DNA from: Bacillota bacterium
GTDB lineage: Bacteria > Bacillota > Clostridia > Christensenellales > UBA1242
Direction of reading: 5' to 3'
DNA length: 40,268 bases
NCBI GenBank assembly: GCA_009780625.1
Contig: WQZR01000001.1
Coordinates: 1 to 40,268, forward strand
Part shown: piece after piece, positions 4,156-26,464 of the stretch
Layout of the letters: each line of letters opens with the position of its first letter
How positions within the stretch are numbered: position 1 is the first letter of the stretch
Position numbers and translations under genes: made by a program
The notes under the pieces: model-generated
The model's database searches: none
What the model saw: only the letters and a program-made list of their open reading frames with translations
Told to the model about the DNA's origin: nothing

Positions 4156-4181
4156 AAACGCCGCTGGCGTTTTTATTTTTT
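4156..4181. terminator. Bidirectional terminator between membrane paralog B and the RAYT gene
   Basis: ACGCC-GCT-GGCGT flanked by A- and T-runs. Confidence 0.65.
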
Positions 4182-4760
4182 ATAAACAAAATAGAAATCA
4201 GTCAGCCAGTTGACAGGGTTATTTTGAATATACTGCCTTGTTTCATTCAACTCTTTTTTATTTCTGATTATTCTTTCATAATAGTTTCGCTGGAAGAATT
4301 TGTATTTTGCATCTATTGTGCAATTTGATTTGAAGTGATGAATAATTTGGCCTAGTGAAATCGTAGGGGTCGCACCTGAGAGCGACCCGTTGTGTAAAAT
4401 TTGAATAATCATGTGAATATGATTTGGCATGATTACAAAGGAATCAATCTTATATCTTTTGCTAGTTTCATTTATACGGTTTATTCTACCTAGTATTATT
4501 TTTCCTAGTGATGACAATTTGATTTGCGGGTCGCTCTCAGGTGCGACCCCTACATTTCCTCGAATTCCGTATTTTAACTCGTGTTCGGTAGGCATCAAAA
4601 CCTCGCTCAAAATGCAATGCCCGTCTTGAACACAAATAACCACATGATAAAACCGCGGCTCTTTATAGTCGAAACTTTTCAATCTGACATCTTTTCTTAC
4701 GGGCAATCCGCTTGCTTGTCCTCTAAGTTCTCTTTCAGTCATAAATCTATTATAGTACAT
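4173..4760 (-). CDS. REP-associated tyrosine transposase (RAYT / TnpA_REP, IS200-like Y1 HUH enzyme)
   Basis: VRLKSFDYKEPRFYHVVICV N-terminus, HUH motif MPNHIHMII, C-terminal FQRNYYERIIRN...YIQNNPVNW. Contains two in-frame REP copies. Confidence 0.85.
   Translation of the reverse strand: MYYNRFMTERELRGQASGLPVRKDVRLKSFDYKEPRFYHVVICVQDGHCILSEVLMPTEHELKYGIRGNVGVAPESDPQIKLSSLGKIILGRINRINETSKRYKIDSFVIMPNHIHMIIQILHNGSLSGATPTISLGQIIHHFKSNCTIDAKYKFFQRNYYERIIRNKKELNETRQYIQNNPVNWLTDFYFVYKK
4363..4388 (+). repeat. REP copy 2 (GTAGGGGTCGCACCTGAGAGCGACCC), inside the RAYT gene
   Basis: Read directly. Encodes GSLSGATPT in the RAYT frame. Confidence 0.9.
4528..4553 (-). repeat. REP copy 3, exact reverse complement of copy 2, inside the RAYT gene
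   Basis: GGGTCGCTCTCAGGTGCGACCCCTAC on the + strand. Encodes VGVAPESDP in the RAYT frame. Confidence 0.9.
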
Positions 4761-9343: not shown

Positions 9344-9913
9344 ATGAAAAACTTTGAAGGAACAGAATTCTTTTTAGGCACACCAACAAGGCTTGATTAT
9401 TTAAGAGAACTAAAACAGAGGCAGGAGATGGAAAGAGAAGAAACATTCGAACAAAGAGTTCTTAGAGAAAGAGAGCGTGAGGCAGAGAAGGTTGAACTGC
9501 AAACAAAAATGATTAGAGAAAAAATTCAAACACAACTGCTTCTTGAAGACTTTTCAAACACCAGTTTTTTGGAGTTTAAAAAAGAAATTGTACTCCGTGC
9601 ACCTGAAGGTGTAGGGGTCGCATCACCATGCGACCCTGTTGAGGTTGTCGACATTCGAGAGCGTATTGTTTCAAATGTAGGGGACGCGCCACAGAGCGTC
9701 CCAACAGAAAGAACCTTCAACGAAGAAGATTTCTCTAAACTTCTAAAAAAAAAGAAGAACAGCAAAAAAGGTGTTTTTGGCGAAATCGTTTTTCTTATAA
9801 CCCTCTTCTTTATGGCAACGCTTTTGTTGGTTATGATTTCTGGAACTTTTGACATAGGAATCATAGGAACATTTCTAAGAGAAGAGACAAATTTTCATGA
9901 AATATTTAGTTAA
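9344..9913 (+). CDS. Hypothetical protein with a charged N-terminal region and a C-terminal TM anchor
   Basis: Overlaps the downstream M50 protease gene by 17 nt. Contains two in-frame REP copies (GVGVASPCDP, NVGDAPQSVP). Confidence 0.6.
   Translation: MKNFEGTEFFLGTPTRLDYLRELKQRQEMEREETFEQRVLREREREAEKVELQTKMIREKIQTQLLLEDFSNTSFLEFKKEIVLRAPEGVGVASPCDPVEVVDIRERIVSNVGDAPQSVPTERTFNEEDFSKLLKKKKNSKKGVFGEIVFLITLFFMATLLLVMISGTFDIGIIGTFLREETNFHEIFS
9611..9636 (+). repeat. REP copy 4 (identical to copy 1)
   Basis: In frame in ORF 9344-9913 (GVGVASPCDP). Confidence 0.9.
9677..9702 (+). repeat. REP copy 5, stem variant GTAGGGGACGCGCCACAGAGCGTCCC
   Basis: T->A in the 5' arm is matched by A->T in the 3' arm, so pairing is kept. 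In frame (NVGDAPQSVP). Confidence 0.85.
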
Positions 9914-10577
9914 TAAAATCAACATTCATCCATTGTTTGTTGTGCTTGCAATAATAATGGTTATAACTGGCAACAGCTTGCCGTTTTTTACTTATATCTT
10001 GGTTTTGCTAATTCACGAAACAACCCACGCTGTGGTTGCGGCATGGTTTGGATATAAACTTCAAAACCTAACATTCATGCCGCAGGGAGCGATGCTAGAC
10101 GCTTCTGAACAATTTAAAACACCAATGCACGAAATCGTTGTTGCACTCTCTGCGCCAATTGTGAACATTCTTATAGCGTTTATTTTTATAGGAATTTGGT
10201 GGCTAATTCCTGAGAGTTATATTCTTACGGAGCAATTTGTACATGCAAATATTTTTATTGCAGTTTTTAATCTGCTTCCAATTTTGCCACTAGATGGTGG
10301 AAGAACAATGCTTGCAATTTGCTCTCACCACAAAAAAAGAAAACTAGGCGTTATTTTGACAACTGTGTTTGCTATTATAACCAGTGTTGTTTTGCTTATT
10401 CTGTTTGTTCTAAGTTTTTGGGGTTCAATCAATTTCACCTTTATAATCATGGCAATATTTCTTTTAAGTGGGCAATTCTTATATGAAAAAAGGAACGCAT
10501 ATTTTTATGATTACAAATTTAACGAAATTATAAAAATTCTAGAAAAAAGAGACTTGGGCAAAAAAATTCACTCTTGA
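9897..10577 (+). CDS. M50 family site-2 metalloprotease (SpoIVFB-like, short form)
   Basis: HETTHAVVA (HExxH) in a TM helix and NLLPILPLDGGR (NxxPxxxLDG). Polytopic membrane protein. Confidence 0.8.
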   Translation: MKYLVNKINIHPLFVVLAIIMVITGNSLPFFTYILVLLIHETTHAVVAAWFGYKLQNLTFMPQGAMLDASEQFKTPMHEIVVALSAPIVNILIAFIFIGIWWLIPESYILTEQFVHANIFIAVFNLLPILPLDGGRTMLAICSHHKKRKLGVILTTVFAIITSVVLLILFVLSFWGSINFTFIIMAIFLLSGQFLYEKRNAYFYDYKFNEIIKILEKRDLGKKIHS

Positions 10578-21901: not shown

Positions 21902-22741
21902 ATGAGATTAAATAAATATATCGCGTCGACCACTGATTATAGCCGTAGGAAAAGTGAAGATGCCATTAAAGAAGGCAGGGTTTTGATTAACAACGAGGTT
22001 GTTAAAAATCTTGCAACCACCGTGGGTGAAGAAGATGTTGTGGAGTTAGACGGCAAAATTTTGTTTCTTCCAAAAAACTTTGTGTATATATGCATGAACA
22101 AACCAAAGGGCTACATCACATCAGTGACAGACGACAGAGGCAGAAAGACTGTTCTTGATTTAATTAAAGAAAAAGACCTGCCAAGAATTTATCCTGTAGG
22201 GCGTTTAGACTACGACACAGAAGGCATGCTTATTCTAACCAACGACGGAGAACTGACAAGACAACTAACACATCCTTCAAGCAAGGTTAAAAAGATATAT
22301 CAACTTAACATCGAAGGAGAACTTTCAAAAGACGATATCAAAAAACTTGAAACTGGCGTAACGCTGGAGTTTGGCTATAAAACCGCACCAGCAACAGTTG
22401 AGATTATTGAAGTTCAATCGGCAAAACAGATTTATAGAAACAAGGTGAAAAACTATATCAAAGAAGAAGAAAAAGCAGGGCTAGACGAAAAGACAATCAA
22501 ACAAAATCTAGAAGACAACCCAATCAAGAAAAAATATGAAGACCCGAACTTCAAAATAACAAGATTTCAGTTGTCAATAACCGAAGGAAAAAACAGACAA
22601 GTCAGAAAAATGCTCGAAGCAATCGGCAAACACATAATTCTTCTAAAACGTGTTCAAATCGGGCAATTGAAAATGGGCGGCTTAAACCGCGGGGAATATA
22701 AGTTCCTAACACCGCACGAAGCTTACTTACTAAAACAATAA
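21902..22741 (+). CDS. rluB: rRNA pseudouridine synthase, RsuA/RluB family (S4 domain plus catalytic domain)
   Basis: MRLNKYIA..SRRKSEDAIKEGRVLIN S4 domain and GRLDYDTEGMLILTNDGEL catalytic motif. Lys/Glu-rich insertion before the C-terminal strand. Confidence 0.88.
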   Translation: MRLNKYIASTTDYSRRKSEDAIKEGRVLINNEVVKNLATTVGEEDVVELDGKILFLPKNFVYICMNKPKGYITSVTDDRGRKTVLDLIKEKDLPRIYPVGRLDYDTEGMLILTNDGELTRQLTHPSSKVKKIYQLNIEGELSKDDIKKLETGVTLEFGYKTAPATVEIIEVQSAKQIYRNKVKNYIKEEEKAGLDEKTIKQNLEDNPIKKKYEDPNFKITRFQLSITEGKNRQVRKMLEAIGKHIILLKRVQIGQLKMGGLNRGEYKFLTPHEAYLLKQ

Positions 22742-22742
22742 T

Positions 22743-22767
22743 GTAGGGGTCGACCACTGGGCGACCC
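22743..22767 (+). repeat. REP copy 7 (25-nt subtype GTAGGGGTCGACCACTGGGCGACCC), intergenic rluB-ruvA
   Basis: Starts 1 nt after the rluB TAA. Same subtype as copy 12. Confidence 0.85.
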
Positions 22768-22789: not shown

Positions 22790-23395
22790 ATGATTTCATT
22801 TATTGAAGGAAAAATTGTAGAGAAAACAGATAAGAGCATTATCGTTAAATGCGGACATATGGGCATGGAAATTTTGGCGTCTTCGTTTTCGATTGCAAAT
22901 GCAAAGCACACAGGCGAAGAAGACTTTTTTTATACATACCTTCATGTTAGGGAAGACGCGTTGGTGCTTTTAGGTTTCAAAACAAAAGAAGAACGCGGAA
23001 TATTTTTAAATCTGATTGAAGTTTCGGGAATTGGTCCAAAAGCAGCAATGACAATTCTAAGCGCAATGCCACTTGAGAACTTAGCTTCAGCAATTGTAAG
23101 GGGAGATGTGAATGCCCTTGCTTCAGCAAAAGGCGTTGGAAAGAAAACAGCAGAACGCATTGTGCTTGAACTTAAAGAAAACATTAGAAAGAATTACAAA
23201 TCAGATGTAGGGGTCGCGCCTCAGAGCGACCCGCAATCAGACATAAGTCTTAGCCAAATTGAGCAAGACGCACAAATCGGGCTAATGAGTCTAGGGCTTA
23301 CCAAAAAAGAATCTGCAGAAGTGATTAAAAAAACGAGAGAGCATTCACCAAAAACCAGCGAAGAAATAATTAAACTCTCATTAAGGATGTTATAG
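22790..23395 (+). CDS. ruvA: Holliday junction branch migration complex subunit RuvA
   Basis: MISFIEGKI N-terminus, GIGPKAAMTILS and AKGVGKKTAERIVLELK HhH motifs. REP insert in the domain II-III linker. Confidence 0.92.
   Translation: MISFIEGKIVEKTDKSIIVKCGHMGMEILASSFSIANAKHTGEEDFFYTYLHVREDALVLLGFKTKEERGIFLNLIEVSGIGPKAAMTILSAMPLENLASAIVRGDVNALASAKGVGKKTAERIVLELKENIRKNYKSDVGVAPQSDPQSDISLSQIEQDAQIGLMSLGLTKKESAEVIKKTREHSPKTSEEIIKLSLRML
23207..23232 (+). repeat. REP copy 8 (GTAGGGGTCGCGCCTCAGAGCGACCC), inside ruvA
   Basis: Encodes VGVAPQSDP. Differs by 1 nt from copy 11 over GTAG...GACCCGCAA. Confidence 0.9.
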
Positions 23396-24706: not shown

Positions 24707-25780
24707 ATGAAAACAGACATCAAAGACTATTGGTATGATTTGCCACCAGAACTTATTGCACAAACTCCACTAAAGAAGCGCGACGAAAGTAAGCTTCTCT
24801 ATTTTGATGGCAAAAATGTAAACCACGGAAACAAGTTTTTAGATTTGCCAAAACTATTAAAAAAAGGCGACATTCTTGTTGTAAACGAAACAAAGGTTTT
24901 GCCGATTAGACTTATTGGAAAAAAATCAACTGGTGCAGAGTGCGAAGTTTTTCTCTTAAAAGATATAGGGGTCGCACCTCAGGGCGACCCGAACAAAAAA
25001 ACATACAACGCTCTAATCAGACCAGCAAAAAGACTTAAAGTAGGAGACGCAGTTGACTGCGGCAAAATGAAAGTTAGAATATCAGAGAAACACGAAGATG
25101 GTCAAGCAACAGTTGAACTAAACTACACTGGCATCTTCGAAGAAGTTCTAGATGAGGTGGGAGAAGTCCCTCTTCCTAGTTACATAAAAAACGTAGGGGT
25201 TGCACCTCAGGGCGACCCGCTCTGCGAACGCTATAACACAATCTATGCATGTCACGCAGGCAGCAGCGCTGCACCAACTGCAGGGCTTCATTTCACACCT
25301 GAGGTGATTAAACAAGTTGAAGCGATGGGCGTGGAAATTGTTCGCATAATTCTTCATGTGGGTCTGGGAACATTTAGACCAATCAAGGTGGATAACATCC
25401 TAAATCACGACATGCACTCAGAAGAATATTTCATTTCACCTGAAGCGGCAGAAAAGATTAACAGAGCGAAAAGAGAGAATAGAAGAGTTGTTGGTGTTGG
25501 AACAACCAGCATGCGAGCTCTTGAACACAACAGTGCACAATATGGCGAAATCAAGGCAGGAAGTTTTCTTGCAAACAGTTTTATTCATAACGACTACGAT
25601 TTTAAAATAATCGATGCAATGATTACAAACTTCCACCTGCCAAATTCAACACTAGTTTTGTTGGTTTCGGCATTCGTTGGTTTTGACAACTATAAAGAAA
25701 TATATAAACAAGCCGTGGAACAGCAATATAGATTTTTTTCTTTCGGAGACTCTAGTTTCCTAATCAGACCAAGGAAATAA
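24707..25780 (+). CDS. queA: S-adenosylmethionine:tRNA ribosyltransferase-isomerase QueA
   Basis: YDLPPELIAQTP, GSSAAPTAGLHFT, GVGTTSMRALE, ITNFHLPNSTL. Two in-frame REP inserts. Confidence 0.95.
   Translation: MKTDIKDYWYDLPPELIAQTPLKKRDESKLLYFDGKNVNHGNKFLDLPKLLKKGDILVVNETKVLPIRLIGKKSTGAECEVFLLKDIGVAPQGDPNKKTYNALIRPAKRLKVGDAVDCGKMKVRISEKHEDGQATVELNYTGIFEEVLDEVGEVPLPSYIKNVGVAPQGDPLCERYNTIYACHAGSSAAPTAGLHFTPEVIKQVEAMGVEIVRIILHVGLGTFRPIKVDNILNHDMHSEEYFISPEAAEKINRAKRENRRVVGVGTTSMRALEHNSAQYGEIKAGSFLANSFIHNDYDFKIIDAMITNFHLPNSTLVLLVSAFVGFDNYKEIYKQAVEQQYRFFSFGDSSFLIRPRK
24965..24990 (+). repeat. REP copy 9 (ATAGGGGTCGCACCTCAGGGCGACCC), inside queA
   Basis: Encodes IGVAPQGDP. The head is ATAG instead of GTAG. 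Confidence 0.85.
25193..25218 (+). repeat. REP copy 10 (GTAGGGGTTGCACCTCAGGGCGACCC), inside queA
   Basis: Encodes VGVAPQGDP. A C->T change in the 5' arm leaves a T:G wobble. Confidence 0.85.
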
Positions 25781-25897: not shown

Positions 25898-26464
25898 ATG
25901 AAAATAATAAAACGAAAAATGTTTATGGGGGCAAACACGGCAGACGGGTTTGTTTCTTTTTATGACCAAATCGTTGACTGGTATGACATCAAAAAAATGT
26001 ATATATTGAAGGGCGGAAGCGGAGTTGGCAAAAGCACATTTATAAAAAAATTCACAGAAAGAGTTATTGCGAATGTAGGGGTCGCGCCTAAGAGCGACCC
26101 GCAAACTTTAACAATCGATTTCATCATGTGCAGTTTCGACCCCAACTCCTACGACGGCGTGATTATTCACGAACTGGGCTTGGCAATAATTGATGGAACG
26201 CTTCCACACATCGTCGACCCAAAATATCCAGGACTTGTTGAAGAAATAATTGATTTATCAAAATATATAAACCCAAATGCTGTAGGGGTCGACCGTTGGG
26301 CGACCCGTGACCTAAAACAACAAAAAAGCGAACTATTTAAGTCCGCATATAAAACTCTAAACGATGCAATGGCTGTGCATATGCAACTTGAAGTTGTCTA
26401 TAAAGATGCTGTTGATTTCAAAAAAGTAGACAAACTAATTAGTCACATAGTCTCCAAGATATGA
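25898..26464 (+). CDS. P-loop ATPase, apparently only the N-terminal half of a longer family
   Basis: GANTADGFVSFYD...LKGGSGVGKSTF Walker A...DGTLPHIVDP. Its 3' end overlaps the convergent gene by 30 nt. Two in-frame REP inserts. Start uncertain. Confidence 0.55.
   Translation: MKIIKRKMFMGANTADGFVSFYDQIVDWYDIKKMYILKGGSGVGKSTFIKKFTERVIANVGVAPKSDPQTLTIDFIMCSFDPNSYDGVIIHELGLAIIDGTLPHIVDPKYPGLVEEIIDLSKYINPNAVGVDRWATRDLKQQKSELFKSAYKTLNDAMAVHMQLEVVYKDAVDFKKVDKLISHIVSKI
26075..26100 (+). repeat. REP copy 11 (GTAGGGGTCGCGCCTAAGAGCGACCC), inside the P-loop ATPase gene
   Basis: Encodes VGVAPKSDP. Confidence 0.9.
26282..26306 (+). repeat. REP copy 12 (25-nt subtype GTAGGGGTCGACCGTTGGGCGACCC), inside the P-loop ATPase gene
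   Basis: Encodes VGVDRWATR. The 25-nt length shifts the frame of the 3' arm relative to 26-nt copies. Confidence 0.85.

Follow-up and report, generated by a model that had tools for sequence, protein, structure and literature searches.

Stem arms change in base-paired steps in a largely intragenic REP hairpin family of an uncultured Bacillota bacterium

The repetitive extragenic palindromes (REPs) described here occur in the genome of an uncultured Bacillota bacterium (GenBank assembly GCA_009780625.1). We analyzed positions 1 to 40,268 of contig WQZR01000001.1 (the window, meaning this whole stretch of 40,268 nucleotides) together with the REPs in the rest of the assembly. The two arms of the hairpin stem change together in this family, including in two copies that lie within one open reading frame (ORF), where the paired change alters the encoded peptide. 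The family has a recognizable anatomy, its arms covary, pairing is kept on one strand rather than on its complement, many copies lie in frame in a coding context, and genes for REP-associated tyrosine transposases (RAYTs) occur alongside it. Our overall explanation, which we consider likely, is that these REPs are single-stranded DNA (ssDNA) hairpins read by a RAYT and that their arms are kept paired. The two copies from which the analysis started, and the ORF that holds them, are as follows.

Positions 9611 to 9636, + strand: REP copy 1, GTAGGGGTCGCATCACCATGCGACCC, with a GTAG head, a 9-bp stem (GGGTCGCAT/ATGCGACCC), and a 4-nt loop; in-frame peptide VGVASPCDP.
Positions 9677 to 9702, + strand: REP copy 2, GTAGGGGACGCGCCACAGAGCGTCCC, with a GTAG head and the stem GGGACGC/GCGTCCC; in-frame peptide VGDAPQSVP.
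Positions 9344 to 9913, + strand: host ORF of 189 amino acids, an orphan whose N-terminal part is charged and whose C-terminal part has a transmembrane segment; it contains both REP inserts.

The original prediction had placed two REPs 40 nt apart in one ORF and had proposed that one of them carries a compensatory double substitution. Both points held. The copies are in direct orientation on the + strand, in frame within 9344 to 9913, with a 40-nt spacer at 9637-9676. The arms are GGGTCGC/GCGACCC in copy 1 and GGGACGC/GCGTCCC in copy 2, such that the T to A change in the 5' arm is matched by an A to T change in the 3' arm and the peptide goes from VGVA..DP to VGDA..VP. At stem pair 4, copy 2 has A:T in place of the T:A of the family consensus, and its sequence is a singleton in the genome. 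Its nearest relatives are GGGTCGCGCCAGAGAGCGACCC and GGGTCGCGCCTCAGAGCGACCC, from which it differs by the paired swap and one loop change; the families GCGCCAGAGAGC and GCGCCTCAGAGC also stand one loop change plus the paired swap away. Folded as ssDNA, copy 1 reached -10.7 kcal/mol (z -4.8) and copy 2 reached -9.0 kcal/mol (z -4.2), while the hypothetical half-changed intermediates between the two stems reached only -6.0 and -5.4 kcal/mol. The pair is one of only five closely spaced direct REP pairs in the genome. A tandem duplication was considered as its origin and rejected, as the flanks and loops are unrelated; the lack of similarity between the flanks implies two separate insertions.

The two hairpins belong to a large family. 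The assembly (966,612 bases in 104 contigs, 37.8% G+C, 84% complete) contains 157 occurrences of GTAGGGG compared to about 45 expected, and a G+C-rich hairpin follows nearly every one. We estimate about 150 copies of 25 to 27 nt, with 153 in our census of 0.97 Mb. Each unit consists of a usual T, the GTAG head, a foot of three G-C pairs, four to six variable stem pairs, and a loop of 3 to 8 nt. The head is GTAG in 138 of the 153 copies and differs at one base in the other 15, of which 2 or 3 may be chance hairpins. The hairpin is 22 nt long in 120 copies and 21 nt long in 27; T precedes the head in 82% of copies, and G follows the hairpin in 61%. The pattern GTAGGGG-N16-CCC matched 116 times in this genome, zero times as a reversed control, and zero times or once in each of 40 other genera of the taxonomic family. 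With 116 matches against none for the reversed pattern, the hairpins at 9611 and 9677 are not chance occurrences. Tight inverted doublets with heads outward and gaps of 0 to 10 nt number 23 (46 of the 153 copies), and the two stems of a doublet differ. The REPs outside doublets (about 70%), including those at 9611 and 9677, are singlets.

To avoid circularity, covariation was measured on a census that did not require pairing: every GTAGGG with a CCC at fixed distance was taken and positions 4 to 9 were left free, giving 117 copies with 62 distinct sequences. At stem pair 4 we found T:A in 91 copies, C:G in 14, G:C in 7, A:T in 2, T:G in 1, and T.C in 2. Stem pairs 5, 6, and 7 were Watson-Crick in 91%, 92%, and 85% of copies, with two to four pair types each. 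In a gap-free alignment, 89.4% of cells were paired compared to 75.4% in shuffles, and 81 cells were changed on both sides compared to 23 in shuffles. The covariation score was 0.394, compared to 0.140 in shuffles, and none of 500 shuffles reached it; control partners slid along the stem gave at most 0.101, with pairing of at most 42%. We obtained the same picture from mutual information with average product correction (MI-APC), which is blind to structure. The top 5 of 325 column pairs were all stem pairs, and columns 8-23 (stem pair 4) ranked first at 0.706, compared to a maximum of 0.259 in 200 column shuffles. Pairs of neighboring columns scored about 0.25, reflecting subfamily structure.

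Changes were also counted on minimum-spanning trees of the distinct sequences, which count events rather than cells. For stem pairs 4 to 7 the trees held 20.6 double changes from one Watson-Crick pair to another, along with 9.7 changes between Watson-Crick and G:T and 5.8 between Watson-Crick and a mismatch, while placing the same number of differences at random gave 1.6 doubles. The count over all nine pairs had an equivalent outcome, with shifted-partner controls at 0 to 1.5. The original prediction had called for a covariation test on the genomic copies and for a count of paired versus unpaired substitutions, expecting compensation at chance level if it was wrong. The test was clearly positive, doubles outnumbered disruptive changes, and the chance-level outcome did not appear. 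Thus, stem-loop potential in this family is kept by compensatory changes, as is characteristic of a REP family.

We then grouped the copies by their inner 12 nt (the core) and found the same stem swaps on different cores. Cores GCACCTAAGGGC and GCACCTGAGAGC each show three arm states, namely TC/GA, TT/GA as the wobble intermediate, and TT/AA as the completed form; both end states, TC/GA and TT/AA, are also present on core GCACTCCGTTGC. Three cores carry both TC/GA and CT/AG, which are four coordinated changes apart. The swap seen in copy 2, T:A to A:T, is likewise present on three cores (9677, C67:255, and C3 -2915, where numbers with C denote contigs of the assembly), each with a T:A counterpart on the same or nearly the same core. 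The A:T copy at C3 -2915 stands alone, so not every A:T variant adjoins a T:A partner. Mixed, noncomplementary arm combinations were absent from the core-grouped copies. When the census was anchored on the core, 105 of about 125 copies had an intact head and all five outer pairs; the remainder comprised about 10 with a T:G wobble, 8 with a degenerate head as the only defect (outer stem perfect), and about 4 with a true mismatch. The C-to-T change at pair 5 that gives the T:G wobble affects a CpG (TCG becomes TTG) and is seen repeatedly, on at least seven cores, which suggests that this CpG is a deamination hotspot.

Quasi-palindrome correction by template switching during replication is a mechanism known from Escherichia coli. 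Template switching within the hairpin could copy a changed arm onto the other arm and yield compensation without selection. This would account for a T:A to A:T change that lacks a wobble intermediate (no copy has A.A or T.T at stem pair 4), for the recurrence of that swap on three cores, and for the great excess of compensated states over mismatches. However, templated repair should clear G:T like any other mismatch, and about 10 to 20 wobbles persist while A:C is absent. It also leaves unexplained why the unpaired GTAG head is invariant and the GGG/CCC foot is fixed, and the co-occurrence with RAYT genes points to a protein reader. We therefore regard templated repair as unlikely to be the explanation, although it may contribute as the immediate source of the double changes. 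The constraint on the hairpin is itself compatible with selection on resident copies, with selection on copied variants, or with hairpin-templated repair; we infer that selection rather than templated repair produced the compensation.

The wobble pairs indicate which strand is constrained. Counted over stem pairs 1 to 7 of every copy, 1013 cells are Watson-Crick, 20 are G:T, and none is A:C. Since each Watson-Crick pair is one transition away from either G:T or A:C, this asymmetry implies that it is the strand with GTAG that must pair, and not the complementary one. The third copy singled out by the original prediction, with a single change that still allows a T:G wobble, is an example, and the wobble was located at stem pair 5.

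Positions 25193 to 25218, + strand: REP in queA, GTAGGGGTTGCACCTCAGGGCGACCC, with a T:G wobble at stem pair 5; peptide VGVAPQGDP.

For this copy, folding gave -6.1 kcal/mol on the GTAG (top) strand compared to -3.4 kcal/mol (z -0.5) on the bottom strand, which hardly folds. The wobble change is synonymous (GTC to GTT, Val).

Symmetric changes in an inverted repeat are by themselves indistinguishable from hairpin covariation, so the palindrome could in principle be a double-stranded site for a dimeric protein, with symmetry rather than folding conserved. A dimeric reader would be expected to fix the bases, yet all four Watson-Crick pairs are seen at pair 4. Tolerance of G:T but not A:C is meaningless in duplex DNA, and the GTAG head is present on one side only. 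The strand asymmetry argues against a duplex palindrome site, which we consider very unlikely, and fits a strand-specific reader of single strands.

A further alternative is that the hairpin is selected as RNA, e.g., as an mRNA stabilizer, a terminator, or a site of translation pausing, rather than as ssDNA. G:U pairs are well tolerated in RNA, 83 of the 120 intragenic copies are sense, a T-run follows 20 copies as in intrinsic terminators, and it has been argued that many REPs act as RNA (PMC3733652). However, in the 37 antisense intragenic copies the mRNA holds the complementary strand, and the antisense wobbles (contigs C22, C38, and C67) are on the GTAG strand, so that they would be A.C mismatches in the mRNA. 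The GTAG head and the pairing are equally conserved in all contexts: Watson-Crick pairing was 95.2% in sense, 95.4% in antisense, and 92.2% in intergenic copies, with the head kept in each. Rfam searches gave chance-level matches only, far below gathering scores, and no RNA role is obvious for a stable hairpin that sits well inside an ORF. A role as RNA in place of ssDNA is therefore quite unlikely in our view.

Much of the family is intragenic. In open frames of at least 100 codons we found 120 of the 153 copies, and at least 77 copies are flanked on either side by 20 or more codons whose scores indicate coding in one and the same frame. Between half and three quarters of the roughly 150 REPs lie inside ORFs, and “extragenic” is a misnomer in this genome. 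In-frame intragenic REPs have been published for subclass 2.4 (PMC6006769) and for some genomes (PMC3733652). A single frame, reading VGVAPxSDP, contains 74 copies; an even distribution over the frames free of stops would give 29, and one that takes orientation into account would give 57. The majority of “sense phase 2” copies are positioned shortly before a gene start. In inverted doublets the reading frame continues across both units, giving 18 codons, e.g., VGAASPCSPGSHSDATPT.

This frame bias raises the question of whether the peptide motif VGVAPxSDP is selected at the protein level, with the palindrome incidental. The motif is Gly/Pro-rich, hydrophilic, and linker-like, which would suit such a role. 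The DNA contexts and codons contradict it. The same DNA is also found antisense, in alternative frames, and outside genes; copy 1's exact 26-mer, for example, is sense in the host ORF, antisense at window position 681 in a 256-codon ORF, and intergenic before a T-run at C47:2952. All 74 main-frame copies begin GTA or ATA followed by GGG, although in the genome GTA accounts for 10% of the codons for Val and GGG for 12% of those for Gly; GTC and CCG/CCC codons are likewise rare. Synonymous positions are invariant and occupied by rare codons. Residues 3 and 8 of the insert covary as V/D, A/S, G/A, and D/V. This pattern follows base pairing and not protein chemistry, implying that the peptide is not the conserved unit; at the protein level, a joint V-to-D and D-to-V change makes no sense. 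The queA orthologues do not have the inserts: the first is cleanly absent from orthologues of 11 other genera, relative to which copy 24965 is an 8-residue insertion, and at the site of copy 25193 these orthologues have a shorter loop. The first queA copy has a degenerate ATAG head that encodes Ile, and most queA orthologues have Ile, Val, or Leu there; the head change may have been favored at the protein level and may have disabled the REP. We give selection of the peptide motif in place of the palindrome almost no credence. The palindrome is the conserved unit, but the peptide is not irrelevant, as 74 copies in one frame against 29 expected implies a peptide-level filter on surviving insertions on top of the hairpin constraint. 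Thus, where the original prediction had selection acting on the hairpin and not on the peptide, covariation, codons, and contexts bear out the first part, and the frame bias makes the second too absolute.

A candidate reader is encoded in the window, and its gene contains two REPs.

Positions 4173 to 4760, - strand: RAYT (TnpA-REP) gene, 195 amino acids, with NHIH (HuH) and YIQNNP motifs; one of four paralogues.
Positions 4363 to 4388, + strand: REP inside the RAYT gene, antisense to it.
Positions 4528 to 4553, - strand: REP inside the RAYT gene, sense; peptide VGVAPESDP.

The protein matched Pfam Y1_Tnp (PF01797) with 30.8 bits (cut-off 23) and NCBIfam REP_Tyr_transpos (NF047646) with E = 3.9e-14. 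Its paralogues on contigs C13, C5, and C59 are 75, 62, and 62% identical to it. Subclass 2.4 is described as having NH(I/F/V)H and YIxNNP motifs, three G-C foot pairs, and REPs in frame inside the transposase gene (PMC6006769). NHIH, YIQNNP, and the GGG/CCC foot agree with this description, and the expected WQ reads FQ, a partial agreement. Each of the four paralogues carries two internal REPs, and the subtypes differ: CCTGAGAG in C1, CCTAAGGG in C13, CCACCTGG/CCACCCGG in C5, and the 21-nt ACCGTTGGG class in C59. This suggests that each paralogue and its own REP subtype form a cognate enzyme-repeat pair. Among 41 genera of the taxonomic family, this genome is the only one in which RAYT genes (four paralogues) and REPs (116 pattern matches versus 0 to 1) were found; the search of the 40 other genera, which also lack the repeats, turned up no RAYT. 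Taken together, the family is a GTAG-type REP tied to four subclass 2.4 RAYT genes.

Other RAYTs bind and cleave REPs in a manner that is specific for single-stranded REP, strand specific, and GTAG dependent (PMC8266576). By analogy with such REP/RAYT systems, for which the mechanism is established, the most likely mechanism here would be binding or cutting of the hairpins by RAYT. In the explanation we favor, the GTAG-bearing strand would fold into a hairpin when single stranded. The RAYT (HuH/Y1 TnpA-REP, subclass 2.4) would read the head and foot base-specifically and the remaining stem as a shape, and variants would be kept or copied only while the arms pair. Stem changes would hence appear as compensated pairs or as G:T wobbles on the GTAG strand. 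The copies in the host ORF would be independent in-frame insertions of 27 nt (the 26-nt unit plus one base), tolerated because each adds a loop of 9 Gly/Pro-rich residues to the linker of a protein anchored in the membrane.

Several points weigh against this explanation. The window's RAYT scored 52.8 bits compared to an NCBIfam equivalog cut-off of 80, probably due to the two REPs that split its domain, and it had no sequence match in PDB. Many of the copies are related by recent copying, such that cell counts overstate events, and counting on trees and cores reduces this inflation but does not remove it. The strand asymmetry is partly confounded with peptide-level selection, as the C-to-T wobble is also synonymous in the sense frame while the mirror change would replace Asp with Asn; the wobble direction is unchanged in three antisense and one or two intergenic copies. 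Searches of 60 related genomes, species-representative genomes, and 5.8 billion proteins yielded no sister species, and evolution in place is thus not traceable. Lastly, given a genome that is only 84% complete, the A:T singleton at 9677 may derive by copying from a master that was not sampled.

These last points bear on whether the hairpins are actively maintained in place within coding sequence, i.e., dual coded and selected both for a RAYT-readable DNA hairpin and for a tolerated 9-residue loop. We consider this doubtful. If it were true, the A:T pair at 9677 would have arisen on site by two nonsynonymous changes (V to D and D to V), and intragenic REPs would benefit the host or the RAYT. 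Other species-representative genomes did not contain the same REP subfamily. Eight metagenome contigs with the repeat come from the same population (97.3 to 100% identity, one difference in 644 REP bases, no presence/absence variant) and are therefore uninformative on evolution in place. Some of these contigs (L024-L028) join contigs of the assembly (C70-C80, C45-C72-C85, C67-C27, C57-C9, and C46-C59). Breaks in the assembly seem to fall where REPs are dense, which would make our copy count a lower bound.

The ORF that holds copies 1 and 2 is a real gene. Its codon score is 0.42 bits/codon, compared to 0.49 +/- 0.15 for long genes of the genome and about -0.3 for wrong frames, and frame +0 scores highest before, between, and after both REPs. 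It had no Pfam or NCBIfam match, and no homologues or orthologues were found in 60 related genomes or among 5.8 billion proteins. The gene downstream of it is as follows.

Positions 9897 to 10577, + strand: gene for an M50 (SpoIVFB-like, HExxH) membrane metalloprotease; Pfam PF02163, 54.8 bits.

The end of the host ORF overlaps the start of the protease gene by 17 nt, and the protease gene is probably translationally coupled to it. The membrane-anchored orphan, with the short M50 gene behind it, is divergent from minD. It occupies the place that spoIVFA has in Bacillus subtilis but has no detectable homology to anything.

The remaining REP copies of the window are as follows.

Positions 681 to 706, + strand: exact twin of copy 1, antisense within a 256-codon ORF; peptide GSHGDATPT.
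Positions 22743 to 22767, + strand: REP of the 21-nt hairpin class, located after ORF 21902-22741 has stopped and before ORF 22790 starts.
Positions 23207 to 23232, + strand: REP in frame in ORF 22790-23395 (201 amino acids, ruvA-like); peptide VGVAPQSDP.
Positions 24965 to 24990, + strand: REP in queA with the degenerate ATAG head; peptide IGVAPQGDP.
Positions 26075 to 26100, + strand: REP in frame in ORF 25898-26464; peptide VGVAPKSDP.
Positions 26282 to 26306, + strand: REP of the 21-nt hairpin class in ORF 25898-26464; peptide VGVDRWATR.

Elsewhere in the assembly, some copies lie at gene ends or gene starts. At least five Ts within 8 nt follow 20 REP copies, 12 of which are intergenic. 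At C17:10825-10849, the TAG stop of a 1378-codon ORF falls in the REP loop (...EESVGVDF and stop) and a T-run comes next, so that this REP appears to supply a stop codon and a terminator-like hairpin. REPs lie directly 5' of a purine-rich, ribosome-binding-like stretch and an ATG at C14:9312-9337, C12:14933-14957, C18:9621-9645, and C17:12164-12189, e.g., ...CCCGAAAAGGAAATAAAATG; hairpins in such 5' leaders could affect translation initiation. A double-foot REP, GTAGGGGTCGCTGTCTCAACGCCCCCTAC, at C45:45-73 and with a twin on contig C81, has GTAG and CTAC at its opposite ends. It resembles a doublet of a TCGCTG-type and a GGCGTTG-type REP (compare C4:6739-6795) after a central deletion, and central deletion of a doublet is the proposed origin of double-foot REPs (PMC6006769). 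We also considered that neighboring REPs are selected for unlike stems to avoid cross-pairing. This was unsupported: a 5-nt arm was common to 6 of 25 distinct adjacent pair types compared to 9.5 expected (P = 0.10), and in tight doublets a 7-nt arm was common to 0 of 18, a marginal result.

The system closely resembles the subclass 2.4 REPtrons (RAYT group 4; Quentin et al. 2018, PMC6006769). Both have the 5' GTAG, three foot G-C pairs, a RAYT with NH(I/F/V)H and YIxNNP, in-frame REPs inside the RAYT gene, and double-foot REPs (here C45:45-73). It differs from them in its host, an uncultured lineage of Bacillota whose genome is about 1 Mb in size, in having half to three quarters of its copies inside ORFs and not in the RAYT gene alone, and in four RAYT paralogues that each have their own REP subtypes. 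The REPs and bacterial interspersed mosaic elements (BIMEs) of E. coli with TnpA-REP (Messing 2012, PMC3479197; Corneloup 2021, PMC8266576) share the GTAG head, inverted doublets of unlike stems (y/z types), and a strand-specific single-stranded hairpin substrate, which in our case the wobble asymmetry points to. However, E. coli REPs are 29 to 37 nt long and extragenic, with a conserved bulge needed for activity, whereas the present units are 25 to 27 nt long and mostly intragenic, with mostly perfect stems or one inner mismatch.

The REPINs of Pseudomonas fluorescens SBW25 (Bertels & Rainey 2011, PMC3116915) are likewise a within-genome family tied to RAYT with inverted doublets, of which we count 23 here, and compensatory changes across REPIN hairpins are common in SBW25 (PMC3116915). 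The main unit in SBW25 is the doublet, which is extragenic, whereas about 70% of the present REPs are singlets, doublet partners differ in their stems, and doublets are read through as 18 codons. In-frame palindromes in functional genes, sometimes two per ORF, are also known from intragenic GTAG/CGTC REPs (Opitutus terrae and others; Di Nocera et al. 2013, PMC3733652) and from Rickettsia palindromic elements (RPEs). G:T pairing in the stems of intragenic GTAG REPs has been noted (PMC3733652). In the genomes of Di Nocera et al., REPs are mostly intergenic and intragenic copies are a minority; RPEs are longer than the present units and have no known RAYT. Compensatory REP stems are thus already known as a principle, and the more unusual feature of the present family is that most copies are translated in one frame.

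This family provides a quantified case of structure-preserving evolution in a translated DNA element, in which each stem swap alters two amino acids of the host protein and pairing prevails. It shows which layer of information dominates where DNA and protein codes overlap. An uncultured Bacillota lineage with a small genome is added to the hosts of subclass 2.4 RAYT/REP systems, and its natural stem variants, together with the presumably nonfunctional intermediates between them, make a ready substrate panel for recognition by group 4 RAYTs.

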